DNA of 52,778 nt, from assembly GCA_900617105.1 (NCBI GenBank), contig UYFQ01000090.1, positions 1-52,778 of the forward strand. Direction: 5' to 3'. The position numbers were made by a program, and so were the translations under genes. Numbering within the stretch: position 1 is the stretch's first letter; every line of letters starts with the position of its first letter. The notes below the pieces were generated by a model. It saw nothing but the letters and a program-made list of their open reading frames with translations. It made no database searches and was not told the DNA's origin. Source of the stretch: Hydrurus foetidus. Taxonomy: Eukaryota. Positions 25,468-43,951 of the stretch are shown here, piece after piece.

Positions 25468-26284
25468 TATGTATTTATTAATCTCCCGCGAGAGTAAAAA
25501 ATCGTGATTTTGCTATGTTTTTATGGCAATTTTTGGCGTTTTTACGAGAAAATGTAACGTTTTTATACCCTTTTCTTACGTTATAATTATAACGCAATAT
25601 CAATTATTTTATTTTATAATATTTTACATATTGTATATTTACTCCATTTTAGCAGTGAAAATACTCCTTCATTTTTCTCTTTTTTTCTCACAATATCATT
25701 TTTATGTCTCTTCTAAATCATAATATCTTGACACCATTTTAGCAGTCATTTTTTTGTATCATATTTCTCTTACATTTTCTCGTAAAAACGCCAAAAATTG
25801 CCATAAAAACATAGCAAAATCACGATTTTTTACTCTCGCGGGAGATTAATAAATACTTATGTAATTACCCTATACCCCCCCCCTTGCTCGTCAGAAATGG
25901 GAGCAAATGGGAGCAATGGGAGCAATGGGAGCAAATAAATCCGTCCACAGTAGATTCTATAATTCAGAGAGGACAACGTGACTTCCTAATATCCGTGTCG
26001 TCCTCTCCATTTTTTTTCAGTGTCTCTCGATTTTATACCTCTTTTGCTCCCATTGCTCCCATTTACTCCCATTCTTACTTTTATCTTTAATATCATCTAA
26101 TTCATTCCACTATTCATTGTTCTATCATAATTTATGATAGTTCTTTTTCATTCGTAGTGTAACAAATTATTACACCCCCTTTTTTCTATCCATATATTTA
26201 CAGACCATTCTTTTACTGGATTACATTGGCAGATTTCTCACTTGGATCTATCTCAATTAGAACATCAAACGCACTAATCAGAGA
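25468..26284. repeat. left composite terminal inverted repeat of the PLV
   Basis: 25468-25856 matches the reverse complement of 43571-43951, and ~26078-26284 matches the reverse complement of ~43206-43412. The middle cassette differs between ends. Confidence 0.92.
25896..26076. repeat. iteron-like cassette: 4x ATGGGAGCA(A), spacer with stem-loop, 3x inverted TGCTCCCAT
   Basis: Directly visible; a direct-repeat homologue lies at 31906-32100. Confidence 0.88.
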
Positions 26285-26478
26285 CGCATTTATTATATTC
26301 TAACGCCCCCCGTTGTTCTCTTATCTTAAAAATCATAAAAACATTAAAGCACGTTAAACCTATTATTACCTTATCCGTAAATTTTTGTGTTAGATTGATG
26401 TGTATTTTTTTACCCATTATAATATTTGATACAAAAAAAAACTTTATACTAAAATAGCATTATATTAGTATAAATTTA

Positions 26479-27185
26479 CTAATCACATAGTTCTCTCAGA
26501 TTAGCGTCGAGAATTCCACGACGGTATTTCTGTTGTGTTGATTCGCTATGCATCATACCATCACTAAATTTTAAACGCATTTCTGGCGTTAAATCTGGTT
26601 TTTGTAAAAACTCGCTCACTTTGGAATGTCTTATATAGTTCACCCCCCCATCTATATCTATTTTTTTATTCATGTTAGTGATATAAGTACCAAGACCCGT
26701 CTCTATCTCTTCTGGAAAAAGAAAACCAAGGAGAAGATGACGGTCAGTATACGATACAATAAGAGAACACAATTCAGGAGATAATCTACGAACGATTTTT
26801 CCGTACATATTAGATGTTTTGTAATTATTAAGAGTAATATGACATTTTTCTTTTCTATGGTCAATAAACAAAATATTGTCCGTACCATTATCGTATGGAA
26901 TTATTCGTAATATTCGCAGACAACCAAAATCATCACGAGCAGTCAATTCATCATATAAACTTGCTATGAGGTATCCTTTGGAATCTTTATCATGTCCAGC
27001 GTAAATTCGGTAGGAATTATCGGTGCTGGTTCTGGTATTGCGTTTAGTTCCTTCAATTGCTCCCGACTAATTTTCATTTTGTCAAGAATTCCTTGTTTAT
27101 GCTTCAAATAATATCGTGCTTGCCGATTACGATTTTTTATGGTAATATTTGCTAATTTCTGTGCATCTTCATTTGTATCACTCAT
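26479..27185 (-). pseudogene. tyrosine recombinase, internally deleted or frameshifted
   Basis: LIASLYDELTARDD (R), NYKT (K), NYIRHS (RH), MMHS (H), QKYRR (Y). The N-terminal ORF 26964-27185 joins out of frame near 26990. Confidence 0.82.
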
Positions 27186-27430
27186 TGTATAATAGTATTC
27201 TAAAGAACTCTTTATATTCTAACGTTAGAAATTAAAGTAACATAAAGATAAAATTGTGAATAATGTAATGTATATTACCATGCAATTACCCGATGGTTAT
27301 GAAAATGAATTCATTCAATTTCGTTTTGTCTACGACAATTATCTTCGTGAAGAGATACTTAATTATGTAAAACCCGCTATTTTATGATATTATCACTTTT
27401 GTATCGAAAAATAAAGTCATTATAATATAA

Positions 27431-27601
27431 ATGAGTACAGATACTGAAGATTACAAACAAACTATTGAAGCATATGTCTTATTAATAAAAGAAAACCATA
27501 GATTAATTGCTGAAAACCAAAAACTCAATAGAGTTTTACAACATTACAAAGAAGCCATAGAATATTTGGGGTTTGGGTTATTTGATGAAGATGAAATATA
27601 A
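27431..27601 (+). CDS. small hypothetical coiled-coil protein (56 aa)
   Basis: ATG preceded by TATAATATAA, like other PLV genes; open to TAA at 27601. Confidence 0.5.
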   Translation: MSTDTEDYKQTIEAYVLLIKENHRLIAENQKLNRVLQHYKEAIEYLGFGLFDEDEI

Positions 27602-27631
27602 ATATATAGATACAAAGTAATAAAGAACAAA

Positions 27632-27886
27632 ATGAATACACAAAATGGAAATACACAAATAGATGAAATAGAACTCAAGAGGTTACGATTAATCCAAAAA
27701 CATAATTCAGAGATGTCAGATATTCAAATTGGGATACAAATGCTCAAATTAGACGAAGTACCTGACGCAGTAAGAAAAGCTCTTTATGATGAGATTACTT
27801 ATTCATTTACTGAAAAATGGAATTATTACCGAAAAGAAATGCACAAATTAGATGATGAGATTAGTGATTTAAAAAAGTATTATTAG
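27632..27886 (+). CDS. hypothetical protein
   Basis: 84 aa ORF tiling the viral gene array. Confidence 0.55.
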   Translation: MNTQNGNTQIDEIELKRLRLIQKHNSEMSDIQIGIQMLKLDEVPDAVRKALYDEITYSFTEKWNYYRKEMHKLDDEISDLKKYY

Positions 27887-28000
27887 TATACAATAAAAAC
27901 CCATTTTTACCCCATTTTTTCAATGTCCAATCAAATTGATTTGGATTTGTATCAAACTTTATAACCATATAAAGAATAAACCAGTTATATATTATACGGA

Positions 28001-28225
28001 ATGCCACCAAAACTGACAGAAGAAGAGCGAATTGCCTCAGATTTAAGAAGGGCAGAATATGCCAGAAATTGGCGTGCTAAAAATGCCGAAAAGTTTGAAG
28101 CTTATATGCATGATTAATATATTGCGAACAAGAAACTTATCAATGATAGAAGGAATGAAAACGCAAAAAAACAGCGAATTAGGGCAAAAATAACGACCCC
28201 TGAAAAAATTGATTCAAAAATTTAG
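28001..28225 (+). pseudogene. small basic protein with premature stop
   Basis: MPPKLTEEERIA..YARNWRAKN..MHD*YIANKK; the frame continues after the stop. Confidence 0.5.
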
Positions 28226-28270
28226 GAATACTTTATAAGAGTATAAAGAATTCATACAATATATTATATT

Positions 28271-29256
28271 ATGGATAATAGTGAGATTGTAAAATTACAC
28301 GTGGAAAGTAAGGTTAAATTTATTACCGATGACGATTTGAAAGTTTTTATAAAAGAAGTACAAGGGGTATTCAAGGACGAATTGGAAGAAACGATTTCGC
28401 TAGGGCAGACACATGATTGTGAACGTATTCTGGAAATACAATACATGATACGGAAATATATCATAGACAACCAGCATCGGATTAATTTCAGTGAAAATAT
28501 AACGCTCAGAGAAAGTTCACCATATTCATTGACAAGTTTATTTGGTCTTTACATGATGGTTGTAGCAGATGTTGAACCTATAAAAACCGTAGTTGATGTT
28601 TTACGACAAGTGGAGCATACTTATTACAGAAGCATGGATAGATTTATTGAAGCAGATGCAAGTGAATTATACGCAGTAAGAGCGGTATTTTATGGAACTG
28701 AAATTCATCAAAATATGTTATGTTGTTGTAGTCATAAATGTCATATTGAAAATATGGGAATTATAAAAAATATGATTACTAACTACCACGTTGTAATCGG
28801 TTGCGATTGTATTAAAAAAACTATCTCATTGATAAAGAGGTGATAAAACAAGAACAACAGAAAACTAATAAATTTCTTAAAAATAAGGAAAAATAACTTG
28901 CTATAAGAACACAAAAAAAAATAGAAAAATGTAGATTAGAAAGACGAAATGAAGAAGAATATGAAAGACGTTGTGAAATTACAAGGATAGAACTAATAAC
29001 AGTTACAGTAACAGAAAAAGAAAAAGAAGAAGATGAGAAGAAACGTGAAATAGAAAATGCAATAGTTATGAGAAGGACTGAATTGGTAAATGATATAAGG
29101 AGGAATAATTTCCCCTGTTATATCCAAGTTGGGTATCGAGATAAGGATACTGCAAAAACACTTGGAGCTTGGTGGGACAATGATGGGAGGTCATGGTATA
29201 TCCGCCCTAATTCTATGAATATTTACACATTATTAGAAAAATACTATAAATTCTAA
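28271..29256 (+). pseudogene. disrupted gene with Cys/His cluster and C-terminal DUF5710-like domain
   Basis: CCCSHKC..VIGCDCIKK, a charged linker, then YIQVGYRDKDTAKTLGAWWD..SWY. Confidence 0.6.
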
Positions 29257-29430
29257 AAAAATATATTATTATAAAATGTTTTTTTTTATGTTATTTTTAT
29301 GCAGAAATACCATACAAAAACGATGTCCAATAAAAATTGATTCTGATTTTATAAAAAGTAATAAGTATAACACAACGGAATAAGTATATAAAGAATAAAC
29401 TCCATGTATATTATCTAGCAGTAATATACA

Positions 29431-31881
29431 ATGTCCTATATTCTCAACGAACGTATTCCACTCGAAAAATCTATCTTCATTCACGAAATGCCATTCAAGG
29501 AATTCAAGCAATATTGTAAGTCATGCAGTAATGACGATGAACGCAAGATACTTTTCAATAAGATCAAGCGAATTTGTAACGAAAATATTATCAACAATGG
29601 CTCTGTTACAAGAGAGTATAAATACAGTAATTCTATGGAACATTATGGAAGGTTATGTTCCAATGGAATGCAGGGGGTCAAGAAATCATTCAGGGGGTTC
29701 TTGATGAGTGATACTACTGATATTGATATGGATAATGCTCACCCTGTAATATTGAGTTATATTTGTAAGAAAAATGAAATCGACTGTACTCATATTGATT
29801 ATTACAACAATAATCGGGAAGAAGTGCTATGTTCTTTTCCAGATAAGACAAGAGATGAAGCTAAAAAACACCTATTAAAGTGTATAAATAACGATAAACA
29901 TAACAAGAATGACAAACACGAATTCTATAGAAAATGGGATAATGAAACGAAGAAACAACAATTATCACTTGGTAATATTGAAGAGTATAAAATGATTGGT
30001 AAGACAGTACCCGATGATAGAGATTACAATATTAAAGGTTCTACTATGTCAAGAATTTTATGTACGGTTGAAGATAAGATACTACAAGTTGTACTAAAAA
30101 TTATTGAAAAAGAAAAACTTGAAACCGCTACACTGATGTACGATGGTTGTATGATTTATGGTGACCATTACAATAATAAAGAACTATTGGAGAAAATCAC
30201 AGTAGGGGTTGAAGAACAATTCGCTGGATTGAATATGAAATGGAGTTGTAAACCACACAATAAAGATATTCTTATTCCTGATGGTTGGAAATCGAAGAAA
30301 ATGGAGAAACTATTGAAGCAGACAATTCCTGTTGAAAGAAGTGAAGTAAAAGAGGTTGAAGAAATTGTAGGAGTCATGGAAGGAGATGATTCGGGTGCAT
30401 CAAAAATAATATTGAATGCTTATCCTCACTGGAAATGCTGTAATGATGTATTATACGCATTCGATGATGAGACAGGAATGTGGAGTGATAAAGTAGAGAT
30501 ACATAATCGTGTTATATCACGATATAGTGAGTATTTAGATATTATCAAAATGAATAGTGAGGGGGAACTAAAAAGAACAGGGCGTAATTACGCCAAAAAT
30601 AACCAGAAGAGAAAGGATATTTTCCCCTTTATTAGAGAGAATTGTGTTGATAATGATTGGATTGTAAGAACTGAAACATCATCTCTCGGAAAAATCCTAT
30701 TCTTAAAAGGACACTATGATTTTAAACGTTCGAAATTTATGACGGGTAAAAAAATATCCGCAACAGACGATGAAAAGAAAAACACTGACGAAGAAAACGG
30801 ATTTAACCCTGAAATCGTATTCTTTTATAGAGTCGATCATGAACTCACTGATTTTACAGATGATGATATGGAGTATATGGATTCCATACAAGAACGCCTT
30901 TTCACACTACCACTTGGTAAAGACGTCGGGGATTACCTGACCCTTAATCTAGCACGGGCTTTTTCGGGAGACATTACGATAAAAAGGATTTTGTTTGGAC
31001 TTGGTATGAGCAACAGTGGAAAGGGAATTTTGACTAAAGCCTGTCAATTATCAATGGGCCAATATTGTGGAGTTTTTACGGGTGAAAATCTTGCGTTTAA
31101 TAACGTAAATAATGATGAAGCACAGAAGATGAGATGGGCAATGCTTTTACGAAATAAACGTTTAATCATTAGTAATGAATTATCAACGAAAAAGATGTTA
31201 GATGGAAACCTTATCAAGAAATTGGCGTCTGGCGGTGATACTATACAGGGGCGATTACACGGGCAACATGAAACCGATTTTAAACCGCAATATCTTGCTA
31301 TTCTCCTTGCTAATGACATGCCAGAAATAAAACCCTTCGACACAGCAATTCAAAATAGAGTTAGGGTATATGCTTATACAAAAGCTTTCGTAGATGAACC
31401 CAGAAATGAATATGAACTGAAGAAAGACCCTAATCTTGATAATGAGATGAAATCACGCCTATTCCAGCGTTGCTTCATTGGATTACTCATTAGAAAATAT
31501 CTGGAATTCCAAGACAACGGGTGCATAGAAAATGAACCTAATGAAGTAGTAGTGGCACGTAATGATTGGATAGGTACAACTGAAGAAAACGATATTATCA
31601 ATAAATTCCAGCAGTTTTATGAAATTACAAATTGTGAAAGTGATTTTGTACCAAGTAGAGAAATTGAGAATTATATTCGCACCATGGGTGATATGTCATA
31701 TAAAAAATTTGTGATGGAATTAAAGAAAAATTGTATTTTAAAATCACTAAAAAAAGTTAAAAATGATGGGGAAACAATCAATAAAAAAAGTATCCAAGGT
31801 TGGTTTGGTATTAAACGCATTGAGGATAATATCAACCCTGATAATATCAATCCTAATGATCTCATTACTGAAGAGTTGTAG
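29431..31881 (+). CDS. TVpol (PolA-like primase/polymerase) fused to D5-like SF3 helicase
   Basis: YGRL, DIDMDNAHPVIL (motif A-like), LMYDGCMI (motif C-like); GMSNSGKG Walker A, ISNE Walker B, LLAND motif C, IKKLASGGDTIQGR. Intact 816 aa. Confidence 0.88.
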   Translation: MSYILNERIPLEKSIFIHEMPFKEFKQYCKSCSNDDERKILFNKIKRICNENIINNGSVTREYKYSNSMEHYGRLCSNGMQGVKKSFRGFLMSDTTDIDMDNAHPVILSYICKKNEIDCTHIDYYNNNREEVLCSFPDKTRDEAKKHLLKCINNDKHNKNDKHEFYRKWDNETKKQQLSLGNIEEYKMIGKTVPDDRDYNIKGSTMSRILCTVEDKILQVVLKIIEKEKLETATLMYDGCMIYGDHYNNKELLEKITVGVEEQFAGLNMKWSCKPHNKDILIPDGWKSKKMEKLLKQTIPVERSEVKEVEEIVGVMEGDDSGASKIILNAYPHWKCCNDVLYAFDDETGMWSDKVEIHNRVISRYSEYLDIIKMNSEGELKRTGRNYAKNNQKRKDIFPFIRENCVDNDWIVRTETSSLGKILFLKGHYDFKRSKFMTGKKISATDDEKKNTDEENGFNPEIVFFYRVDHELTDFTDDDMEYMDSIQERLFTLPLGKDVGDYLTLNLARAFSGDITIKRILFGLGMSNSGKGILTKACQLSMGQYCGVFTGENLAFNNVNNDEAQKMRWAMLLRNKRLIISNELSTKKMLDGNLIKKLASGGDTIQGRLHGQHETDFKPQYLAILLANDMPEIKPFDTAIQNRVRVYAYTKAFVDEPRNEYELKKDPNLDNEMKSRLFQRCFIGLLIRKYLEFQDNGCIENEPNEVVVARNDWIGTTEENDIINKFQQFYEITNCESDFVPSREIENYIRTMGDMSYKKFVMELKKNCILKSLKKVKNDGETINKKSIQGWFGIKRIEDNINPDNINPNDLITEEL

Positions 31882-31905
31882 AAAGACAAAAAAAAACTTT
31901 CCTAG

Positions 31906-32100
31906 TAATGGGAGCAAATGGGAGCAAATGGGAGGAATGGGAGCAATGGGAGCAAATAAACCGTCACTATGTACATTCTAAAAATACGTGACGACGAGAC
32001 GTCGTTTATGACTTCCTAATAAACGTCGTCTTCTTTTTTTTTAGTATCTCTGGATTTTTAATCTCTTTTGCTCCCATTGCACCCATTTGCTCCCATTCTT
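31906..32100. repeat. second iteron-like cassette immediately downstream of the helicase gene
   Basis: 5x ATGGGAG(C/G)A, central CGTTTAT-GACTTCCTA-ATAAACG stem-loop, 3x inverted units. Confidence 0.88.
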
Positions 32101-32113
32101 AATATTATATTAG

Positions 32114-32626
32114 TTATACCTTATAAACAATTTCTCCGACATATTTCTTCTTGTTCTTCATTATAGTATCGTATTGTTTGTTTATAGAATCGAGTGAGAA
32201 TTCGTGTAAGACCCCGCCATATTCGGTTTGTACCTGTCTGAATGCGTTTTGTAATTGTGTCCAATTTGCGTAGAACCATTCACTTTTCATACTTGGGCGT
32301 GAGGGAAATATAAGCATTTTTGCGTCAGTTTCTTTTAAATTAGCGATAAGTTTCTTTTCCATTTGCCTGTATATTTTCTTTTTGTCTTCTCCATTTTGTA
32401 TCCTTGGGTAAGATAAGAAAAAGCAGATGTAGAGACCAAGTGGGTAGTACGTGTGGTAATTCTCTATACGCCCCGCTAGATCTTGTGAAGTCATACCGAC
32501 CTTGAATACAGCATTTTTTTTCTTGTCTAATTTTTCGAACGGTAGGAGACAATACAATCCGTTTTTACCTTTGAGGAACAGTTCATCATGTGTCACATTA
32601 TACTTCTTTATCTTAACGGGAACCAT
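32114..32626 (-). CDS. GIY-YIG superfamily (T5orf172-like) protein
   Basis: GLYCL..VFKVGMT..LAGRI..MEKKL..SEWF pattern. Confidence 0.75.
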   Translation of the reverse strand: MVPVKIKKYNVTHDELFLKGKNGLYCLLPFEKLDKKKNAVFKVGMTSQDLAGRIENYHTYYPLGLYICFFLSYPRIQNGEDKKKIYRQMEKKLIANLKETDAKMLIFPSRPSMKSEWFYANWTQLQNAFRQVQTEYGGVLHEFSLDSINKQYDTIMKNKKKYVGEIVYKV

Positions 32627-32910
32627 TATAATATGGAAGTATATTTTTACTCACTCAAAATCACGGAATAAATTCACCACTCAAAATCACGAAAATTATC
32701 GAAAAACCGTAAAAATTAGTCCCCCCTTTTTTTGGCAAAATCTCGTCGTTTTAGACCTAAATCCGATAAATTTTTTTGGGGGGACTAAAAAGTGTCCGTT
32801 AAAGATTTTTAGTTTCGTCCTTTTTGGTCGAAACTTGAGTGGTAAAAACACCGATGTACGTTTTTTCGTTTTTTTGTATCTCTTATTTTATTTTCTATAT
32901 TTAGTATAAT

Positions 32911-33393
32911 ATGCCAAGAAAAGTCGTTGATAAGTTAGAATCTTTAGTAGAAGAAGTCCCCGTAATGGTAGATATTCCCGAAGATAGTGAAGTAGAAGAA
33001 GAACCAAAGACGATAGAAAAGAGTAAGAAACCACGTACGGAAAAACAGAAAGAGGCGTTTTTGAAGGTCATCGAGAAACGAACGGAAGCGAGAGCTATAC
33101 GAGCAAATAATAGAGAGAAGGAAGCGAAGGAGAAAGCAGAAACCGATGCGAAGGAGGCACTGGAGAGAAAGAAGTTGCTGGAGAAAAAGATTGTGAAAAA
33201 AGCAAATATTATTGCGAAAAAGGAATTGAAGAAGCATATTGCCCTTGATGATATTAGCAGTGATGAAGATGAGAGTGACTCTGAAGTAAAAAAGGAACTT
33301 GTACGGTTCAAGAGGTCAGTTGTGGAAAAAGTGATGAAAACAACAGTTCCAGCAGTTCCGGTTCCAGTTGTACCAAAATACAGATTCGTGTAG
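32911..33393 (+). CDS. Lys/Glu-rich coiled-coil hypothetical protein
   Basis: 160 aa, KKPRTEKQKEAF motif, TATAATATG start, directly upstream of the ATPase. Confidence 0.7.
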   Translation: MPRKVVDKLESLVEEVPVMVDIPEDSEVEEEPKTIEKSKKPRTEKQKEAFLKVIEKRTEARAIRANNREKEAKEKAETDAKEALERKKLLEKKIVKKANIIAKKELKKHIALDDISSDEDESDSEVKKELVRFKRSVVEKVMKTTVPAVPVPVVPKYRFV

Positions 33394-33418
33394 ATAAAAT
33401 AGCAGTATACTACATAAA

Positions 33419-34177
33419 ATGTCAATAAGTTTAAAACATAATATACGCCCCGCTTTTCCAATAGCACGAATGAATTGTGACGATGGTCTTGATTCACGAT
33501 TGAATATGTACTCACTGACAAGTTTGATGAATTCACATGAATGTACGGTTTTATGTGGTGCGCCGAAGAGTGGTAAGACGTCTCTATTATGGGGTTTTTT
33601 TAAACACCCGAAATTATTAAAAAAAGTATTCCATAATATTTACATTTTTCAACCAACCGTAAGTGGTGAATCAATGAAGGACAATATCTTCAGTTGTCTT
33701 CCAGATAATCAGCGTTTCGATAAATTGAATTACGATGATTTAAGTGATGTTTTAGAACGAATTACCAATAGCGAAAAATGGGAGGAAAACTGTGTAATTT
33801 TCGATGATCAGGCTGCGTATTTAAAGCAAAAAAGCACACGTACTCTATTTGAAGAATTGGTGTACAATCGTAGGCATCTGAGGACAAATATTTTCTTCTT
33901 AACACAGGGATGGAAGAAAATCCCTTTAGATCTCCGCAAGGTACTTTCTAATATATTTTTATTCAAGGTTGCCAAGAAAGAGTTGTATACAATCTGGGAC
34001 GAAGCAATAGAGGAGAATGTGGATTTAGTGCCAAAAATAAGTAAATTAGTTTTTGATAAGAAGCATAATTTTTTATTTGTGAATGTGGAGAGTAAGAGAA
34101 TGTTTAAAAACTGGGACGAAATTCTAATTTTCGACCCCGACGATGATGATGAGGAAGAGGCGATAAAAACAATATAA
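33419..34177 (+). CDS. A32-like (FtsK/HerA) genome packaging ATPase
   Basis: GAPKSGKT Walker A, CVIFDD Walker B, RRHLRTNIFFLTQ, IPLDLR. Confidence 0.92.
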   Translation: MSISLKHNIRPAFPIARMNCDDGLDSRLNMYSLTSLMNSHECTVLCGAPKSGKTSLLWGFFKHPKLLKKVFHNIYIFQPTVSGESMKDNIFSCLPDNQRFDKLNYDDLSDVLERITNSEKWEENCVIFDDQAAYLKQKSTRTLFEELVYNRRHLRTNIFFLTQGWKKIPLDLRKVLSNIFLFKVAKKELYTIWDEAIEENVDLVPKISKLVFDKKHNFLFVNVESKRMFKNWDEILIFDPDDDDEEEAIKTI

Positions 34178-34201
34178 AGATATAGGACAATATAAGATAT
34201 A

Positions 34202-34639
34202 ATGCCAAGAAAAGCGATTGATTACAGTAAATCACTCGTGTATCGTATAGCGAATAAGGATACAACGTATTATATAGGTTCGACGACTAATTTTAGAAAA
34301 AGAAAAAGTCAACATAAAAGTAATTGTAAAAATGTAAAATCACCAGAATACAATAAAACATTATACCAGTTTATTCGTGAAAATGGTGGTTGGAGTGATG
34401 AGTGGGTTATGGTTCTCGTTCAGTCATATCCTAATTGTAAAACATCAATTGAACTATTGAAATATGAACGGGAACATTATGATATTTACAAACCAGAAAT
34501 GAATGTAAAGAAACCTTATTTATATGAAGGTGAGAAAGAAGAACATTGTAAAGAATATAAAATAGAAAAAGTGAAATTGAATACTCTGGAAAAGCCAAAA
34601 CCAAAAACAAAAGTAAAGACGGAGACAAAATTCATTTAA
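34202..34639 (+). CDS. GIY-YIG endonuclease
   Basis: VYRI..YYIGSTTNFRKRKSQHK..LYQFIRENGGW..YEREH. Confidence 0.88.
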   Translation: MPRKAIDYSKSLVYRIANKDTTYYIGSTTNFRKRKSQHKSNCKNVKSPEYNKTLYQFIRENGGWSDEWVMVLVQSYPNCKTSIELLKYEREHYDIYKPEMNVKKPYLYEGEKEEHCKEYKIEKVKLNTLEKPKPKTKVKTETKFI

Positions 34640-34661: not shown

Positions 34662-35399
34662 ATGTCAATTAAGATACTACTCAACTCAAAAGATAGGGTA
34701 AATAGTGCTACTTCAGCAAATGATTGTGAGTTTCGTGTCAATTGGGGTGCGATATTGGACGATGGAAAATACCGTGTAAGTTATAGCATTTGTAAGCAGT
34801 TAATTCCCGTAATACCAGAAATACCTTGGGTTTTTAGAGTGCAGAGTCCAACATCAACAATACCAACAACAGTAGATGGTTTTACCTTATCAAATAATAA
34901 TGTGAACACTGTTATTGATAGTGTACGTGAGAATGTATTTAATTTTAGGGGTAATGGATTTTTATCATTAAGCGTCCCCACGCCCGTGAATTCAACGAAG
35001 ACATTGTGGGTGATGATTCCGAATATGACTGTAACTAAAAATAATAATGTGTTTAGTTCCCGAAAAATGCCAGTATGGTTTAATCGCACAATTTTTTTAA
35101 GAGCATCTGTTAATTTTGGTGTATCAGGAGGAGGTGATGTTATATCATCAGTAGCACAGACATCAGGTGTATGGAAATTTTACGCAATAACAACAACCGC
35201 AACAGAGACAAAAATATATGTAGATGGTGTGCTTGTAACATCGAGGAATGTGACGTGGGGAGGTGATACAGCAGCGATAAATTTCGGTGCGTATCTTGGT
35301 GCATCGTTTTTAACGGGCCTTCTGGACGATATGAGGTTATATTCGAGTACTCTCACAGCAACAGATATAAATGATTTATATACAAGAACATTATTATAA
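34662..35399 (+). CDS. N-terminal penton-like segment fused to a LamG/concanavalin-like domain
   Basis: ILLNSKDR..VNWG resembles the N-terminus of ORF 35694. WKFYAIT..KIYVDG..FTGLLDDMRLY-like ending (FLTGLLDDMRLYSSTLTATDINDLY) is a LamG signature. Confidence 0.75.
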   Translation: MSIKILLNSKDRVNSATSANDCEFRVNWGAILDDGKYRVSYSICKQLIPVIPEIPWVFRVQSPTSTIPTTVDGFTLSNNNVNTVIDSVRENVFNFRGNGFLSLSVPTPVNSTKTLWVMIPNMTVTKNNNVFSSRKMPVWFNRTIFLRASVNFGVSGGGDVISSVAQTSGVWKFYAITTTATETKIYVDGVLVTSRNVTWGGDTAAINFGAYLGASFLTGLLDDMRLYSSTLTATDINDLYTRTLL

Positions 35400-35417
35400 T
35401 ATACCTATTATTGTATA

Positions 35418-35672
35418 ATGTCTAATATAACTTTGCATGTAGATTTGGGTCAAGATACAGTTACAACAACATCACCAACACAAGTTGTATCGAGAAACAC
35501 GAGAGAATTAGGAAGATTTATACCCCGTGTAGATGTGAATCAGACAATTGAATTACGTAGTAGACCACAGAATAACACTTTTAGTGTCAAATTAATGGAT
35601 AATTTGACAAATTTAGTATCAACTTTAGATTATGAATATATCATACAAATTTGTTTTGAAAAGATAGAATAA
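35418..35672 (+). CDS. C-terminal half of a penton-like beta protein
   Basis: Aligns by eye to the C-terminal two-thirds of ORF 35694 (DLGQ/NLGQ, SPT, GRFIP/GSIIP, EYIIQICFEKI/EYLLALNFEKI). Confidence 0.7.
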   Translation: MSNITLHVDLGQDTVTTTSPTQVVSRNTRELGRFIPRVDVNQTIELRSRPQNNTFSVKLMDNLTNLVSTLDYEYIIQICFEKIE

Positions 35673-35693
35673 TTTCTTAACCTAGATTATATC

Positions 35694-36149
35694 ATGTCAA
35701 TTTACAATGTACTAATCAATAGTAAAAACAGAATTCCAGCACTAACATCATCATCAAATTCAAAATACTACTTCAATTGGGGGGGTGTCCTACCTGAAGG
35801 GCAGTATTTGCTTCGTTGGGGTTTTACGTGTTCTGGAGTCGATACAACAGTAAATAAAATAGGATTAGTATCAATAAATTTAGGACAGAGTAGTGTGTAT
35901 ACAGCATCTCCAACAAATGTGGGTGCATCAACCACAAATATAATTGGTTCTATCATCCCAAATGAAATTGGTACATCTTCGTTTTTGTATGGCGATTCCA
36001 ACACAAATAATATTGTCTATCTTGGTAATGCTCCATCAGTGAATGAATTTACAGTGACAATAACTTCATTAGACGATTCATTGTGGACGGATTCTGCAGG
36101 ATCTGAGATTCCAGAGTACCTTTTAGCTTTAAATTTCGAGAAAATATGA
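35694..36149 (+). CDS. small single-jelly-roll / minor capsid-like protein
   Basis: VLINSKNR N-terminus, FTVTIT and EYLLALNFEK C-terminal strands; structural gene context. Confidence 0.6.
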   Translation: MSIYNVLINSKNRIPALTSSSNSKYYFNWGGVLPEGQYLLRWGFTCSGVDTTVNKIGLVSINLGQSSVYTASPTNVGASTTNIIGSIIPNEIGTSSFLYGDSNTNNIVYLGNAPSVNEFTVTITSLDDSLWTDSAGSEIPEYLLALNFEKI

Positions 36150-36165
36150 ATAGGTATAGTATAGA

Positions 36166-36893
36166 ATGTCATATTTTACATACAACCTACAGACAATGGC
36201 AGGACTGGAGAGTGTCAGTGATGGTGTTGCAACCTTGGAAAATGGAGTATTAGAATGTGATAGGGTAATAGCAGATGATATTGAGACAAATAGTTTAAAT
36301 ACAATAAATTTGAGTGTATTGAATAATATTACAGCGGGTGAATCGATTGCAATAGGACGTGATGTAGCAGTCGGAAATAGTATTGTCTCTCCGAATTTGT
36401 ACACAACAAAATTAGTATCAAGTATTTTGGAATGCAAAAAGTTAAAAACAGAAAATATTCATTTGTATAATAATTTACAATCATATGATGATACAAATGT
36501 GGGATATATAAAAACTGCAATAATAGCATCATCATCATTATTATTTACAAATACAGTAAGAGTATCGTCTCTTTACCTTTACCAATCGGTGTATATACCA
36601 TATCATATTGTTTTACTCTGGGATTGTCAGGTGTGTCACTTCCATCACTACATAGTTTATCTCATGGACTTTCTACAGATAATCAGAATTTTAATGTGAT
36701 ACAAAAAAAGAACTATCAAAACTTGGTGTATAACGACAGTTTATCTTATGTAACATTTTACGAAACGGGATTTTTCCATATTACAGATTATAATAGTTCA
36801 TTGTATCTATTAATAAGACATAATACGGCAGTAAATACCTCGAGTAGAATACTAATAGAGAACGCCAAAATATCAGTATTACGAATAGCATAA
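36166..36893 (+). pseudogene. putative fibre or structural protein, frameshifted near 36580-36625
   Basis: Two overlapping ORFs; beta-rich repeats; located in the structural cluster. Confidence 0.5.
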
Positions 36894-36925
36894 ATAATAT
36901 TATAATATAACCTTATAGTAATATA

Positions 36926-38374
36926 ATGTCAAATATTTCAGCATTAAATTTGGCAGTAAGCGGGACTTGTGGAATAAGTGGTGGTGTCAGTTTATCATCA
37001 CCTCTAATCAGTGGATCATCTTGTTCTTATCAAGGTATTACAACAAATACATTGACCACAACTGGTGCAGTTCTTCATAACTCTCTACCAATATGCAATG
37101 TATTACCATCATTGCCGAATCAGTTAGTATCAAAGGGATATACTGATATACAGAACAACGCACAGAGCGTCTTAATTAGTGATTTAGAAATACGAGCAAC
37201 AGCAATAGAAGATTTAAATGTAGTTCAAGATACACGACTTGCAGATATAGAAAATACAAATGCATTGCAAGATGTATCAATAAGCGATATTGAAGTTGTA
37301 AATACCAACCAAAGGACGAGATTAGATGGAATTGACACTTTGAATAATACGCAAAATACAGATATAAGTGCGTTACAGACAAGGGCAACAGCGATTGAGG
37401 GTGTCAATACAACGCAGAACTCGAATATTACAGCATTACAGACAAGGGCAACAGCAATTGAGGGTGTCAATACAACGCAGAACACGAATATCACAGCATT
37501 ACAGACACGTGCAACAGCAATAGAAACGGTCAATACTACACAGAATACGAGTATCACTGCGTTACAGACACGTGCAACAGCAATAGAAACGGTCAATACC
37601 ACGCAAAATACGAATATTACAGCATTACAGACACGTGCTACAGCAATAGAAACCGTGAATACGAATCAGGCGACATCAATCACGAATATAGATACATTGA
37701 ATACAACACAGAACACCCGCATAACCAATGTGGAAAATACAAACACTAATCAATCAAACTTATTGACAACTATGATTACTTTAAACACGACGCAAAATGA
37801 CCGCCTGACAGCGATTGAGGGAGTAAATACGACTCAAGGGACAAATATCACTGCATTACAGACACGTGCTACAGCAATAGAGACCGTAAACACTAATCAA
37901 GACGCAGTAAATACCACACAAAATACTAATATTACAGCTTTACAGCAGAAGACGACTCCAATTGTATATACAACCCCCGTAGCGGGTGCATTAACATCAT
38001 TAACGTCATCATTAGACATACTACCTTATGTATCAAGTACATTCTTAAAAGTGTATAATATTAACAATCAAGCAATCACTTGTTTAGGACAGGCGATTTT
38101 CGCTGGGTTAGGGATCATAACGACACGATTACAATTAGGTAATTTTGGGACGATAATGACTGGAATGTCTTTTGGTAATACTTTAAGCGTCGTTGGGAAT
38201 AATGTGGTGAATTTTCCAGCATCATCATTTTCAGGAGGAGTTGTACCAAGAGTGCTAATTAGTCCATCAGGGAATGGTGTTTTTTTTGTAGTCAGCAGAA
38301 CCCTTATATCATTTACTTATTCCGCATCAGTAGCGGGTGTGAATGTAGATTGGATCGCATTACAGTCAGTTTAA
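36926..38374 (+). CDS. fibre-like protein with 21 aa coiled-coil repeats
   Basis: TRATAIE(G/T)VNTTQNTNITALQ repeats (63 bp units, ~37345-37945) and a beta-rich C-terminal head ending VDWIAL. Confidence 0.78.
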   Translation: MSNISALNLAVSGTCGISGGVSLSSPLISGSSCSYQGITTNTLTTTGAVLHNSLPICNVLPSLPNQLVSKGYTDIQNNAQSVLISDLEIRATAIEDLNVVQDTRLADIENTNALQDVSISDIEVVNTNQRTRLDGIDTLNNTQNTDISALQTRATAIEGVNTTQNSNITALQTRATAIEGVNTTQNTNITALQTRATAIETVNTTQNTSITALQTRATAIETVNTTQNTNITALQTRATAIETVNTNQATSITNIDTLNTTQNTRITNVENTNTNQSNLLTTMITLNTTQNDRLTAIEGVNTTQGTNITALQTRATAIETVNTNQDAVNTTQNTNITALQQKTTPIVYTTPVAGALTSLTSSLDILPYVSSTFLKVYNINNQAITCLGQAIFAGLGIITTRLQLGNFGTIMTGMSFGNTLSVVGNNVVNFPASSFSGGVVPRVLISPSGNGVFFVVSRTLISFTYSASVAGVNVDWIALQSV

Positions 38375-38395
38375 ATATCAATATATCACATACAA

Positions 38396-38626
38396 ATGAC
38401 ACAATTCATTGAGTCATCTAATTCTATAACAGTAATAACTCTAACATTCGGTTTTTTATCAATGGCGTTAATCACAATAACAACGTGTATTTTCAAGGTG
38501 AAGTGTCGTGAGTGTGTTTTAGGGTGTTGTAAAATTACCCGTGATGTATCAGCAGAAAACTTGGAATTGGAGATAGAGAGCAGAACTAATCGTAAAGATA
38601 ATATACCCCCGCCATCAATCGTTTAG
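38396..38626 (+). CDS. small membrane protein with Cys cluster
   Basis: N-terminal hydrophobic helix followed by KCRECVLGCCKITRD. Confidence 0.6.
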   Translation: MTQFIESSNSITVITLTFGFLSMALITITTCIFKVKCRECVLGCCKITRDVSAENLELEIESRTNRKDNIPPPSIV

Positions 38627-38673
38627 TTTTAGCATTATATTAATATGTTTTAATATAATATACTAAAAGTAAA

Positions 38674-38937
38674 ATGGGATTTTTTGGATCTTTGTTAGGA
38701 GGTGGATTAGGTGCTATCGGTTCTAAATTTTTACCCATTCCAGGCGTGGATGGTCAGGTGCTCGGAACAGCCCTTGGTGGACTAGCCCCGTTCAAGACAG
38801 GCGGTGCAGTTGGTCCAAGAAATAGAGCGTGTCTACTTCATAAGAATGAATACGTATTGCCCGCAAATGCTAAACCAACAAAAGCACAACGAGCAATCGT
38901 AGCAAAAAACAAGCGTAATGCCAAGAAAAAGAAGTAG
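38674..38937 (+). CDS. small Gly-rich protein with N-myristoylation consensus and basic tail
   Basis: MGFFGS (MGxxxS), Gly-rich amphipathic N-terminus, LLHKNEYVLP, KKKK tail. Confidence 0.65.
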   Translation: MGFFGSLLGGGLGAIGSKFLPIPGVDGQVLGTALGGLAPFKTGGAVGPRNRACLLHKNEYVLPANAKPTKAQRAIVAKNKRNAKKKK

Positions 38938-38998
38938 ATGAAAAAAAATGATATAGAAAAAAGTTAATACATTATAATACATAAAGCGAGGTTTTATA

Positions 38999-39677
38999 AT
39001 GCCAAAGAAACCGATTAATTATAAGAAAACGTGTGTTTACAGATTAATTTACAACGATATTACCTGTTATGTTGGTTCAACTACCAATATGAGACAGCGT
39101 AAATCACAACATAGACGTGGTTGTTATAACGAGAAAAATAAGGACTACAATTATCCATTGTATAAGTTTATTCGTGAGAATGAAGGGTTTAACAACTGGA
39201 AAATGATTATGGTTCATGCGTACCCTGAGTGTAAAACAAGTGAAGAGTTAAGAATGCATGAGAGGAATCACATTGAAGAACTCAAACCATCGTTAAACGT
39301 AAATCGCCCTATTGTAACAGAGGAAGAAAAAAAATGATGCAAATGACCGAAGCAGATAAGCACGTTTAGAAAATCCAGAACAATTAAAACAATGGAGATT
39401 GGAAAATGTAGAACACGTAAAAAAATATAAGTTACAATATTGTGTTGATAATGCTGATAAAATTAGAGAGTACGCAGATGCACATAGAGATGAAATAAAC
39501 TTAAAAGGTAAAATGTATCGTGAAGCAAACGCCGAAAAGATAAAGGAGCGAGATAAAAAGACAACTTGTATGTGAATGTGGACGTGTTGTAAATTTACGC
39601 CATAAAAAAAGTCACGAGAAATTAAAAATTCACATAAACTTGATGGAAGCAAAAAAGAAGTAAAGCATGATACATAA
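38999..39677 (+). pseudogene. second GIY-YIG endonuclease, disrupted, with C-terminal CECG..H..H finger
   Basis: Paralogue of 34202-34639 (VYRL..YVGSTTNMRQRKSQH). Frameshift in the A-run near 39330 and a later stop. Confidence 0.8.
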
Positions 39678-39707
39678 TAAAATATATATAAGAATCTTTT
39701 ATAATGT

Positions 39708-40228
39708 CTAACCACCTGTGTTTGTTTTTTTTCTAACCTCTTTTCCCGTGCCTTTTGGTTACGAAGTAATCGACGTGTTTCTATCTCGTCTGGGGTCAAT
39801 GGGTGTTGAGCCCGTGTTCGTCTTGCTATTGGAGTAGTATTATCATAGTAGAAATTATCATCAGGTGTTTTGTATAAGTCCGTAAGATTTACAACCGCTT
39901 CATCATATTTTCTTTTACTTGGAACTGGAATTTTACTAACTCGTATTCCTTGAGGGGTCAATGTCTGTATTCCAACGCTATTTGTAGGTATTCTAACTGG
40001 TTCAAATACAGTTTCTTTTACCGTTCCTACTGTATTATAAATAATTGGAGGAGATGGTTCACCTTGTAAAGTAATATACTGTGGTTGTTGGCGATACGCA
40101 GGTTGTGGAGCAGTCCTTTTTGCCCTTGCTTTGGTGGTGTTAATATTTACTACGACGCTTTGTGATTGTTTCTGTTTCTGCTTCAACCCCTTTTTAGATA
40201 GTTTTTTGGTAATTCTCTTTTTTGCCAT
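39708..40228 (-). CDS. basic putative core protein (KQKQKQSQSVVVNI motif)
   Basis: Lys/Arg-rich. The called ORF runs on to 39293, probably through a homopolymer frameshift near 39730; the likely stop is TAG at 39708-39710. Confidence 0.6.
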
Positions 40229-40312
40229 TTACAATACCAATACATTAAAATAATCTTGAAAAACTATTTTTGAAAAATTCTGGTATATCACGATTCAGTA
40301 CGTTATTAAACT

Positions 40313-40933
40313 TCATGTTGTTGGTTGAAAATAAACTGTATCCCGTGCTTGGTTTTGTAAAAGTTCATTGCTTTGTATCTTATCTATTGCCGTAGTTGCA
40401 ACCGCTCCTACATCTGTAGTTGTATTTACAATTTTACGAAATTGTTCATTACCTTCAAATAATTGTCTAGTATCCTGTAAAACAAACTTTTCGAGAGCGT
40501 CTGTATTTAACCCGTTAGAAATGAGTAGTGAGATTATAAAGTTCTGACAGTTGTTGTCTTGGGCTTTGTAACTGAAATAAGAACCCCCCATTTTGCTTTT
40601 CGTTTTTGAAAGCATATCATTGAGAGTCAGTCCAGCATTGATAGGTACAGGTAGAGTTTCCGTCCCTATCCTCATTTTTGAGAATTTGTAAATTTGTATC
40701 ACTTCGTTTTTCTCAATAACATGTAAAGAGTTTTTAGTTTGAACAACCATAAAGAGATGATACAAAGTGTCATAATCCGTATTTTCCATCTTTTTCTCCA
40801 ACTGTCCTCGTGATGTAATATTGAGTAGGAATTTTAATACTTTTGACAGCGGGGTTCGATTTACCGTGATTTTCGTGATTTCATCGTCGCCTATCCTATG
40901 GATAATCTTTTGAACAGGATTTAAATATGACAT
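40313..40933 (-). CDS. permuted papain-like (PPPDE/NlpC-P60 type) peptidase candidate
   Basis: LYHLFMVV His precedes Y..QDNNCQNF Cys. The likely start is MSYLN after TATATAATG. Confidence 0.62.
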   Translation of the reverse strand: MSYLNPVQKIIHRIGDDEITKITVNRTPLSKVLKFLLNITSRGQLEKKMENTDYDTLYHLFMVVQTKNSLHVIEKNEVIQIYKFSKMRIGTETLPVPINAGLTLNDMLSKTKSKMGGSYFSYKAQDNNCQNFIISLLISNGLNTDALEKFVLQDTRQLFEGNEQFRKIVNTTTDVGAVATTAIDKIQSNELLQNQARDTVYFQPTT

Positions 40934-40958
40934 ATTATAGTATAAGAGAATATAAAAA

Positions 40959-41902
40959 ATGCTGACGGTTGAGTACACTCGTTACATATCTCTCAACACT
41001 CAACATTGTATCAAAAAACAAAGTAGTGGTTCCGGAAATACTTTATACGAATCTTCCTTTTTATCACAAATATCATTTGATTTAAAAAACGTCTTAAAAG
41101 ATGATGATGATATATTGTATTCTCATATTAATATTATAAATGCTCAGATTCCTGTGTCATTCTACCTTATCAATTACACAACAAATGTATTAGCATATAA
41201 AATAAATAGTGGTGTGATACAACTGATGACAATAGAGCGTGGAAATTACAATATTACGTCGCTTATGAGTGTAATCAAGCAGGGGTTTTTAAACGCAGGA
41301 TATGCATTTACAATAACATTTAATAAGGTTACAGGTAAATTGTTATTTGTATCACCAATCGGAACAACCTTTACGATATTATCCAGTAGTTCAGGTGGAA
41401 TTATCAATGAGATTATCGGTTTTGATTCTGTGTCTTCTTACATATCAACAGGTAATATCTTAAACGCCGAACATCCTGCATCTTTAATCGGAATAAAGAA
41501 ATTGAAAATCAGTTCTTCCGCTTTACATACAAGTGGTTTATCTAGTGGTGGAGGGGTGATTTACTCGGAATTATACCAGTGAGTTCTGTAGCAACAGGAT
41601 TGATACTATATGAGAACAATAGTTCAAAAAAAGGAGGTTTAATGAGAAATAAGGAAATATCAAATATTGACATTACAATTACAGATGAAAATAACCGCTA
41701 TATAAACTTCAATAATGTAGAGTATAGCATTACTCTGGCAATTACAACAACCCGTATTTTAAAAGAAAGAATTAATTCTCTATTTAGGGATCCTACACAA
41801 CAAATACTGGATACAAAGCAACCACAAAATGTAGAAACAAATACTGGGGGAGATGAAAATGATTTAGATTATTTTATGTATAAGCACGGGATACAAATAT
41901 AA
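40959..41902 (+). pseudogene. minor capsid protein (penton), frameshifted near 41555
   Basis: AQIPVSFYLIN, IERGNYN, FNKVTGKL, IIGF, then IPV..ILYEN..IDITITDEN..INFNNVEYSITL. Confidence 0.85.
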
Positions 41903-41949
41903 TGCGTTTTTATTCAAATTAATCTCTTTTGATACACTATACTTAAAGA

Positions 41950-43275
41950 ATGAGTTTAATGCTTCCAAAAGAGATTAATTACGACCTTCCTGTCTCACTT
42001 CCATCTGGCGTCCAGACATTTGATATTAACGTCCTTCCTGTGAATGGAACAAGTTTCAGTTGTGCTACGGCGGGTGCTTACGTCCAGTTCGATCTACCTG
42101 CCCGTGCTGGATATATGGACGGTAAAACCCTCGCCCTCCGTTATAAATATACTTGTGTTTCTACGGGTGTGACTCGTATCCGTGCTTGTCCTTTCTTTAC
42201 CCCTATTCTCCGTCTTGAAACCATCTTCGGATCTCAGCCAGTCCAGAACATAAATGAGTACGGTCAACTTCAGAATATGCTTATTAACCTGACGCATAAC
42301 GTGGCGGACAAAATTGGTAGTGTGACGGGTTACGGTTGGGCTCTCGAAGGTGCTGATAAGGTACATACATGGCAGTCGACTGATGGACGTTCTTGCGGAC
42401 AAAATGAGAAGGGTTCGTTTTGGGGTCCACTGAAGGGGTGTATTCTATCCGAGGCGGATAGGTATATACCAACAGGAATGATGCCAAATATCCGTATTCA
42501 ACTTACTCTTGATTCCATTGCCAACATCTTTGCTCCTCCATCGGCTGCTGCAGTAACACTAAATCTTGAAACAGGTACTCCAGTTTCAAGTGCAACAGTA
42601 ACGCCAACTGATTTTACCTTGAGCGATTTTGTGCTTTCTTACAGCCAAATTGACTTTGGTACTGAAGTAGACAATGCTGTTCGTTCTATGGGGGAGAAAA
42701 TTACAATTAAGAGTCAATCTTTCAATAGTTCATCTAACCCTATCAACTCAGGAACAGCAGGTCAGTTTGAGTTGATTTACTCACAGAAAATGGCATCCGT
42801 TAAATCACTTTTCCTTCATTGTGGTTCAGGTTCTCAGAACGGTAAATTTGATGCATTCGAAATTACATCTGGTGGTGATGTTCAATTTAGTATAGCATCT
42901 CGTCTTTATCCACAGAGTCGTCCACTTTCGTCAGCAGTAGCTTCTCGTGGTACGCTTTTCTTGGAATTGAAGAAGGCCGTGGGCAGTTTATATAACTAGC
43001 ATAACAGCATGAGTATTAACCAGCAAGAGTATTTGACCCTAGGAACTGCATCCACCGTTGTAAATCCTGCCAAGGTTTATTATGCTGTGAATACCGAACA
43101 AATACAGTCGAATTCCGTTCTTTTGAGTGGGGTTAGTACTCAAAATTCCCCCGTGACTGTCCGATTAAACATAGCTACTGCGACGGCGTTTTCCGTGTCA
43201 GCAACTCTGATTAGTGCGTTTGATGTTCTAATTGAGATAGATCCAAGTGAGAAATCTGCCCGTGTAATCCAGTAA
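41950..43275 (+). pseudogene. major capsid protein (double jelly roll) with one in-frame TAG at 42997-42999
   Basis: ORFs 41950-42999 and 43009-43275 are in the same frame (~440 codons). VQFDLP..YMDG..LRY, QNINEYG, YIP..M..IRIQLTL, VKSLF, LLSGVST; adjacent to the penton. Confidence 0.85.
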
Positions 43276-43951
43276 AAGAATGGTCTGTAAATATATGGAT
43301 AGAAAAAGGGGGTGTAACAATTTGTTACACTACGAATGAAAAAGAACTGCCGTAATTTACGGCACTACAAATGAAATAGTGTAATGAATTAGATGGTATT
43401 TAAGATAAAAAGTGAGGAGTGAGGAGTGAGGACTTGTTTTAAAGTCGTATAGAGGAGTTGAAACAAACATTTAAAAAAAGAAAAAGTTTGTTTGAACTAT
43501 ATTAAATAACATTTTTTAAGGTCCTCACTCATCACTCCTCACTTTTAATCTTAAATAGCATCTAATAACTTATGTATTTATTTATCCCCTGCGAGAGTAA
43601 AAAAACGTGATTTTGCTTACTTTTAATGGCATTTTTTGGCGTTTTTACGAGAAAATGTAAGAGAAATATGATACAAAAAAATGACTGCTAAAATGGTGTC
43701 AAGATATTATGATTTAGAAGAGACATAAAAATGATATTGTGAGAAAAAAAGAGAAAAATGAAGGAGTATTTTCACTGCTAAAATGGAGTAAATATACAAC
43801 ATGTAAAATATTATAAAATAGAGGCGTTATAATTATAACGTAAGAAAAGGGTATAAAAACGTTACATTTTCTCGTAAAAACGCCAAAAAATGCCATTAAA
43901 AGTAAGCAAAATCACGTTTTTTTACTCTCACAGGGGATAAATAAATACATA
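43206..43951. repeat. right composite terminal inverted repeat of the PLV
   Basis: Contains the MCP 3' end, the AGTGAGG cassette (43388-43567) and the fold-back module (43571-43951). Confidence 0.92.

Follow-up and report, generated by a model that had tools for sequence, protein, structure and literature searches.

The combination of a TVpol-S3H replicase with a tyrosine recombinase (YR) has been described in Polinton-like viruses (PLVs) as a general association, with Gezel-14T and the cryptophyte cluster C1 as particular cases; Sputnik-type virophages share it. PLVs of Rhodomonas cluster C1 are endogenous, predominantly carry TVpol-S3H, have a YR integrase in 78% of cases and mostly show no target duplication (PMC12220804). 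The accounts consulted leave open how replication of TVpol/YR viruses starts, and why PolA or AEP replicases travel with tyrosine recombinases. Among the papers listed by searches of the openly accessible literature, none was seen to describe an iteron origin in virophages or polintons, or with TVpol. In SaPIs, which are bacterial phage satellites, the origin lies directly behind rep, with iterons inverted around an AT-rich centre and a winged helix as their reader.

The window studied here is the whole 52,778-nucleotide stretch of Hydrurus foetidus DNA that was analysed (contig UYFQ01000090.1), and it contains an endogenous PLV with the following features.

25468-43951: Polinton-like virus element, 18.5 kb, AT-rich, with inverted repeats at both ends
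25468..25867: left terminal repeat, two 90-nt inverted arms (25468-25557 and 25770-25859) with a 212-nt spacer
25895..26087: cassette B, iteron-like and palindromic, GGAGCA-type repeats inverted around a central spacer, in the left terminal region
26079..26283: inner part of the left terminal repeat, an inverted copy of 43205-43410 (MCP 3' end included)
26479..27185, minus strand: putative tyrosine recombinase that has lost ~130 internal codons near 26990, changing frame there; catalytic part kept
27432..28225, plus strand: three small ORFs; the single one scanned had no Pfam match above cut-off
28271..29256, plus strand: ORF pair ending in DUF5710, split near 28813, probably one split gene
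29431..31881, plus strand: replicase, intact, 816 aa, with predicted TVpol (PolA fold, residues 1-278), D5-like SF3 helicase and C-terminal winged helix
31907..32111: cassette B', a candidate replication origin lying 25 nt past the stop codon of the replicase, with 5 + 3 short repeats in inverted orientation
32114..32626, minus strand: T5orf172 (GIY-YIG-like) nuclease (E 6e-4, above cut-off)
32911..33393, plus strand: 160-aa charged protein; relatives have similar-looking ORFs near the penton
33419..34177, plus strand: A32-like packaging ATPase, intact (Pox_A32 E 2e-8)
34202..34639, plus strand: GIY-YIG nuclease 1, most of which (34152 to 34564) is skipped in contigs of three runs
34662..36149, plus strand: three small proteins related to one another and likely accessory to the virion; a LamG domain in the first
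36166..38374, plus strand: fibre locus with 21-aa coiled repeats, breaks near 36553 and 36894, probably one broken gene
38674..38937, plus strand: 87-aa basic glycine-rich protein, conserved in relatives
38999..39337, plus strand: GIY-YIG nuclease 2
39293..40228, minus strand: basic protein whose N-terminal motif is conserved and whose 3' part is disrupted near 39683-39720
40313..40933, minus strand: 206-aa protein, with a permuted papain-like fold as a lead only (0.90; Peptidase_C97 on 31% of the cluster)
40959..41902, plus strand: probable penton, in two pieces split near 41552
41950..43275, plus strand: major capsid protein (MCP), predicted double jelly roll, one internal stop at codon 350
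43411..43555: cassette D, laid out as B with another repeat (GTGAGG type)
43563..43951: right terminal repeat, inverted arms 43571-43660 and 43862-43951

With Gezel-14T (PgVV) and TVpol-YR PLVs the element shares a size of ~19 kb, terminal inverted repeats, MCP, a probable penton, A32 ATPase and fibre. The likeness to Gezel-14T, which is one of gene content and layout, extends to a YR adjoining TVpol-S3H, GIY-YIG nucleases, AAAATTGA before the replicase, and a direct repeat found both in the terminal region and after the end module. In contrast to Gezel-14T, the element has no recognised Tlr6F or alpha/beta lipase, has the papain-like lead instead, and carries genes on both strands. It resembles the Rhodomonas cluster C1 PLVs in its endogenous state, YR and TVpol-S3H, but differs in lying in a nest of retrotransposons and in having a GC content below that of the host. 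From virophages (Virophaviricetes) of the Sputnik type it is set apart by a 441-aa MCP without a match to the Sputnik-family Pfam model and by the lack of any match to an adenain-type protease.

The initial annotation had proposed an AT-rich provirus bounded by terminal inverted repeats, with TVpol-SF3 and YR, and this is borne out by composition, folds and motifs. GC is 33.7% within the element, compared to 44.1% and 43.6% outside, and two inverted-repeat pairs (25468-25867/43563-43951 and 26079-26283/43205-43410) are each 91% identical. A size of 15-40 kb, terminal inverted repeats and a GC shift on integration characterize PLVs in the broad sense and are all seen here, as are a double-jelly-roll MCP and an A32-like packaging ATPase. 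The pPolB and rve integrase of Maverick-Polintons (Polintoviricetes) are, as previously noted, absent from the 23 ORFs scanned, and no long ORF is unassigned. The palindromic arms within each terminal repeat were not part of the initial annotation; the left repeat has a fold z of -20.8. A much larger inverted repeat (6569-7942/51168-52492, 45 kb) was considered as the boundary of a larger element and rejected, as it consists of two opposed copies of a retrotransposon 5' part.

Based on structure prediction, the replicase, which is intact as first reported, is a TVpol-S3H, that is, a PolA-fold N-terminal domain fused to an SF3 helicase. Residues 1-278 match Klenow (Z 14.1, rmsd 4.0, 264 aligned), the protein matches D5 (Z 28.0, rmsd 5.8, 399 aligned), and residues 722-798 match the RFX winged helix (Z 8.7, rmsd 2.6, 70 aligned). 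The recombinase is ~130 residues short of its 360-aa relatives and keeps the catalytic set R-K-(x)RH-H-Y expected of tyrosine recombinases such as the OLV11-like group, with R208, K247, R310, H311, H337 and Y345 invariant in 16 rows. Its identification as a YR draws on these motifs and on two of 19 relatives that match Phage_integrase (PF00589), both below cut-off; searches of the protein against PDB and PHROG gave no match. The MCP is predicted to fold as a double jelly roll (pLDDT 86.5) and matches the SGIV, PBCV-1 and Sputnik MCPs in structure comparison (E 1e-18 to 5e-12). By sequence only antibody noise was found in PDB, and a metagenome scan with the MCP as query returned no match. Its single in-frame stop had been recognised correctly, and an intact relative of 441 aa is 97% identical. 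A reassigned stop codon was set aside as an explanation, since termination is normal in other genes and the standard code gives open frames in relatives. The packaging ATPase, likewise intact as reported, is 29-51% identical to the ATPases of capsid relatives. The penton assignment is probable, given its position, a beta-rich family, a DUF5901 match below cut-off and a weak best PDB match of its profile to PBCV-1 P1v1 (E 0.015).

Among the features missing from the initial annotation are three iteron-like cassettes, B, B' and D, each 3' of a gene (YR, replicase and MCP, respectively). B and B' are identical at 161 of 204 positions. The A+T content of the centres is 61% (B), 67% (B') and 79% (D), compared to 66% for the element. 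The cassette layout recurs behind related replicases: it lies within ~200 nt of the stop at 22 of 49 TVpol loci (17 of 30 clusters), whereas 5 of 470 ends of other genes and none of 980 shuffled sequences have it, and a strict version gives 16/48, 7/424 and 0/960. In the 27 TVpol loci that were negative by the detector, the layout is visible by eye in some and absent in several. Loci fetched by their YR have it at four of five SF3 genes (three of four distinct elements) versus 5 of 281, and it is present on six of seven capsid-clade contigs with a primase-helicase-type replicase. A converse contrast, the lack of a cassette on four capsid-clade contigs without SF3, was discarded because in three of them the contig end cuts the replicase.

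Like a SaPI origin, B' lies directly 3' of the helicase gene and has at least two opposed repeats on each side. The replicase likewise resembles the SaPI5 primase-helicase (Z 24.7, rmsd 6.3, 404 aligned) in a similarity that covers the helicase and C-terminal winged helix. The SaPI replicon (PriRep5 plus origin) shares with the element a primase-SF3 helicase fusion with a C-terminal winged helix, and inverted short repeats directly behind its gene. Several PLV repeats look like the SaPI5 iteron by eye. SaPI origins are larger than the candidate PLV cassettes of 150-200 bp: they span ~300 bp, contain 6-12 iterons and have a centre that is clearly AT-rich. We conclude, with a probability of about 0.68, that the element is an integrated PLV that pairs a double-jelly-roll capsid module with a recombinase-replicase end module, and that the cassette behind the replicase is likely its replication origin, a role assigned by analogy with SaPIs. 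In favour of this role, a winged-helix type and a repeat are both common to loci L003 and L091, which have a non-TVpol N-terminus, and L056, which has TVpol. Against it, the nearest winged-helix neighbours of the element's replicase have other repeats, and across 32 hand-picked, non-dereplicated loci the partial Mantel r of repeat similarity was 0.165 for the TVpol domain versus 0.109 for the winged helix. If it functions as SaPI replicons do, the short repeats would be bound by the winged helix, a helicase hexamer would be loaded on each side of the spacer, the two hexamers would open the spacer, and TVpol would then provide the primer. Integration of a circular form by the recombinase would have left no target duplication. 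A giant-virus helper is probably needed for transcription, for which the promoter evidence is weak, and the copy as assembled could make neither its own recombinase nor a full capsid, so that sister copies would be needed.

A broader and more tentative proposal, which we regard as possible but on present evidence doubtful, is that primase-helicase PLVs and virophages in general use a SaPI-like iteron origin behind the replicase, that recombinase, replicase and origin can be exchanged together as one replicon with copies of the origin on both sides, and that this element is a swap product whose right-end origin (GTGAGG type) came from a different replicase class. The virus itself is one more endogenous PLV, and the cassette is the weightier part. 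As a candidate origin of 200 bp for which a reader domain can be predicted, the cassette opens the way to direct binding and replication assays and could be a marker for detecting replicase swaps. If it is an origin, it would tie these parasites of eukaryotic viruses mechanistically to bacterial phage satellites.

The integrity of this copy deserves separate consideration. It had been called lightly decayed. The recombinase deletion exceeds what a homopolymer error could produce, and further damage was found at ~28813, 36553, 36894 and 39683-39720; the single-base breaks at ~36553 (fibre) and ~41552 (penton) occur in none of the compared contigs and may be assembly errors. We consider it unlikely, though a serious alternative, that two proviral copies were misjoined in the block, which would also contain indel errors from long reads, and that the host has no single copy of this form. 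Such artefacts have been reported in protist assemblies, and genes of the flanking retrotransposons are broken too. On the left the element is flanked by a chromoviral Gypsy gene that is interrupted, and on the right by an unrelated repeat of very high depth; this mismatch of the flanks was not in the initial annotation. The arms differ at 9-11 of 90 bases between the ends and at one base within an end. With unrelated repeats as flanks and differing ends, the copy may be a recombinant or a misjoin, and the two ends probably derive from different variants, several of which coexist in contigs of organism A. However, collinear pieces in contigs of three runs cover 30 of 30 bins, the terminal-repeat spacer is near-identical at both ends except for one 11-nt gap, and a low-depth contig of an independent sediment run agrees with the window near 28785-28822. 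No read or contig crossing either junction was observed in the comparison, which drew on four of 20 matching runs, and exact scans with a terminal arm gave zero matches. The matching runs listed included no RNA run, and a share of about 6% of an RNA run labelled as the same species contained no reads of the element and few of the flanks, which is uninformative either way. A misjoin would bear on this copy but leave the virus family and the cassette untouched.

That the element represents an undescribed deep PLV lineage seems improbable, and with regard to gene content the earlier suggestion of a possibly undescribed lineage is not supported, as TVpol-S3H with YR is already described in Gezel-14T and cluster C1. 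Pfam capsid families, including the Sputnik MCP family, reach cut-off in 0 of 98 family members, the best structural relatives of the MCP are at most 14% identical, and the motifs of the capsid clade are absent from the searched supplements of PMC7805220 and PMC10120064. However, such capsids are usually without Pfam matches, and the family comprises 314 clusters at E≤1e-30 and 2560 at E≤1e-3, including near-complete genomes in IMG/VR, a collection mined by Bellas and Sommaruga 2026. As TVpol with YR is common in print and the capsid family is large, we take the element to be a further PLV of a known kind.

It is also quite improbable that the cassettes are only recombination ends of a mobile recombinase-replicase module, bound by recombinase or helicase when the module moves, and that replication begins instead in the terminal repeats, a site proposed by Barth et al. 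2024. Direct repeats holding the cassette do bracket YR and replicase here (B/B') and in loci L010 and L091, a similar direct repeat is reported in Gezel-14T, and one capsid clade carries several replicase types. However, cassettes also occur behind replicases where no YR relative was detected, often as a single copy, and SaPI origins match them in layout and position. Mobility and origin roles are compatible with each other. Exact scans with the B repeat gave two matches, both unrelated-looking.

A transcription terminator or RNA stem in the same virus, with no origin, would suit the position of all three cassettes 3' of a gene and arms 93-97% complementary over 30 nt, but is very doubtful, given the rarity of the cassette at other gene ends, its arms of tandem short repeats that vary in sequence with the replicase, its occurrence upstream of the replicase as well in some loci, and the short loops, not ~120 nt, of mimivirus hairpin terminators.

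By eye, the MCP resembles rows of the TVS/S. punctatus/PC_0230 type. The sequence AAAATTGA lies 98 nt upstream of the replicase gene and 66 nt upstream of the ORF pair at 28271..29256, its only two occurrences in the element, with four more in the flanks.

We conclude that the AT-rich block in this contig is a real endogenous Polinton-like virus (PLV), either damaged or mis-assembled, and that its significance lies in a candidate replication origin rather than in its gene combination, which is already published. The features concerned are as follows.

25468-43951, integrated PLV (the element), 18,484 nt
25895-26087, palindromic iteron-like cassette B
26479-27185 (-), tyrosine recombinase (YR)
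29431-31881 (+), replicase, a TVpol-SF3 helicase-winged helix protein
31907-32111, palindromic iteron-like cassette B'
41950-43275 (+), major capsid protein (MCP)
43411-43555, palindromic iteron-like cassette D

B' lies directly 3' of the replicase stop: a short repeat occurs five times, followed by a spacer and then by three copies in inverted orientation. Its 79% identical copy, B, occupies the left terminal region, so that YR and replicase are bracketed by the pair; D, built on a different repeat, holds the corresponding place at the right end. In SaPI (PMC9371898; 10.64898/2026.10.17.759575), the origin directly follows rep: an AT-rich center has two or more iterons on each side, in opposite directions, and the iterons are read by the winged helix of the helicase. 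The element resembles SaPI in both protein layout and DNA layout. Because both are present here, the most likely role of the cassette is that of a replication origin (probability roughly 0.6 to 0.7): the winged helix would bind the repeats, the origin would melt at the cassette, and synthesis would be primed. Barth 2024 (PMC11296320) proposes that terminal repeats act as the origin and reports that in Gezel-14T a direct repeat occurs both within the terminal region and behind the end module; the bracket arrangement was thus already known. The titles and abstract openings searched contained neither the internal repeat structure of the cassette nor its SaPI reading.

The layout recurs behind related replicases. 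Alignment of the replicase fetched 80 loci, 71 of them with 400 nt downstream of the gene. With loose detector settings the layout was recognized at 22 of 49 TVpol loci (17 of 30 clusters at 60%) and at 3 of 22 loci lacking the TVpol domain, compared with 5 of 470 ends of other genes and none of 980 shuffles; with a strict detector the counts were 16/48 and 1/22, against 7/424 and 0/960. Among 80 loci fetched by YR, a cassette follows four of the five SF3 genes with sufficient downstream DNA (3/4 distinct elements) and occurs at 5 of 281 other gene ends. The repeat sequence itself differs among loci. Across 32 hand-picked loci (35 submitted, three without a call), repeat similarity correlates with that of the winged helix (r 0.24, p 0.0005) and of TVpol (0.23); the partial correlations are 0.11 and 0.165, respectively, and therefore the winged-helix reader domain is not statistically singled out. 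One clean case is provided by L003, L091, and L056, which have winged-helix type and repeat in common, but not the N-terminal domain. The element is a counter-case: it has the GGAGCA core of these three loci, yet its nearest winged helices sit at loci with other repeats. The D-type core with full layout was found at a single locus (L016) out of 181; close variants occur at L030, L032, and L054, whose replicases resemble that of the element only in the TVpol part. Cassette copies flank the replicase upstream and downstream in L016, L040, and L054, and tandem cassettes occur in L040 and L020. A cassette and a TVpol-helicase gene also lie within viral contigs of 353 kb (L030:12227-12377) and 85 kb (L032:12235-12377), consistent with movement into large viruses.

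The word AAAATTGA, described in 10.1101/2022.07.28.501842 as an early promoter word common to Gezel and its helper, is present at two places in the element: 98 nt upstream of the replicase and 66 nt upstream of the ORF at 28271. Of 26 related replicases, 13 are preceded by a relaxed form of the word, a count without background control. This placement is a weak sign of helper dependence.

The 816-aa replicase is uninterrupted (model pLDDT 88.6). In fold comparisons, residues 1-278 match family A polymerase (Klenow, Z 14.1), the middle part matches D5 (Z 28.0) and the SaPI5 primase-helicase (Z 24.7), and residues 722-798 match the RFX winged helix (Z 8.7). Some close relatives are similar only in the helicase part. 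One partial helicase relative carries a Mallomonas record, which together with the habitat of a compared run suggests a freshwater protist as host. The YR has lost about 130 residues between two surviving pieces, across which relatives of 360 aa are 86-92% identical; its catalytic positions are invariant in the alignment. Neither pPolB nor rve was found among the element ORFs scanned, and the initial annotation was correct in recognizing a TVpol-SF3 helicase paired with a YR. Its suggestion of a possibly undescribed lineage is not supported as far as gene content goes, since this pairing is already reported in Yutin 2015 (PMC4642659), for Gezel-14T (10.1101/2022.07.28.501842), for cryptophyte PLVs (PMC12220804), and in Barth 2026 (10.64898/2026.10.13.758929) and Bellas and Sommaruga 2026 (10.64898/2026.06.19.733378).

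For the MCP, queried with its internal stop translated as X, the predicted fold comprises two beta barrels, a double jelly roll (pLDDT 86.5), and matches capsids of iridovirus, PBCV-1, faustovirus, and Sputnik. A word-indexed search returned 124 relatives, the best intact and 97% identical, and a profile search 314 clusters at E<=1e-30. The packaging ATPase is assigned to Pox_A32 (Pfam), and the gene preceding the MCP is probably the penton. Eight IMG/VR contigs (9-17 kb) share the capsid module and differ in their large replication ORFs (D5-type, AEP-SF3, SF1-containing, and others without assignment). The protein at 40313-40933 (-) belongs to a family common among Preplasmiviricota clusters, with a permuted papain-like fold as a candidate only; capsid-clade relatives have lipase-like genes in its place.

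The boundaries are those first annotated, an AT-rich block (33.7% G+C versus 44.1% and 43.6% in the flanks) between two-part inverted repeats (25468-25867/43563-43951 and 26079-26283/43205-43410, 91% identity each), set among nested Copia and chromoviral Gypsy retrotransposons. A 1.4-kb inverted repeat (6569-7942/51168-52492, 91%, 45 kb apart) was rejected as the termini, as it represents opposite retrotransposon 5' parts with a gag-like ORF. On the left, the flanking sequence is a Gypsy integrase gene interrupted at about 25464; on the right, it begins within an unrelated repeat that recurs at 16001-16128. The junctions have no target duplication, which YR elements usually lack (PMC12220804), and the flanks do not contain two halves of one target site. 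Inside each terminal repeat are two 90-nt inverted arms that differ at 1 of 90 positions within one end and at 9-11 between opposite ends, with a nearly identical spacer at both. Either the ends derive from two variants, through recombination or a misjoin, or the arms at the left end differ in function from those at the right and have been homogenized inside each end.

This copy was compared with contigs from two runs of organism A, which may be the source of the window, and from one sediment metagenome; these contigs leave none of the 30 bins of the element and its two flanks uncovered. Over 35447-35932, two contigs deviate from it at 1 and 46 places, and thus several variants of the element coexist. 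The breaks, initially described as light decay, include the MCP stop, the YR deletion, and the penton-region break (41552) as annotated, and extend to further single-base indels near 28813, 36553, 36894, and 39683-39720. At 36553/4 and 41552 the entire contig depth of three runs disagrees with the window, so these are private changes or assembly errors; at the other indel sites the runs are mixed. Comparable long-read artifacts have been described for protist proviruses. Contigs in all three DNA runs bypass GIY-YIG 1, as expected of a mobile nuclease. A weak, low-depth contig joint in two runs, with a side of only 26-28 nt, omits replicase and B' (28269-32116).

Nested Copia elements and Gypsy elements with chromodomains make up nearly all of the flanks (1-25467 and 43952-52778), and most of these elements are split by frame changes. 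Between the retrotransposons lie a 10-nt tandem array (18520-18684, 16.6 copies) and TAC-rich repeats (13542-14050). At 14128-14550 (+), a fragment similar to the SF3 helicase portion of Rep from a circular ssDNA virus (PF00910 at E 7e-4, narrowly missing the cut-off) may be a second endogenous viral piece.
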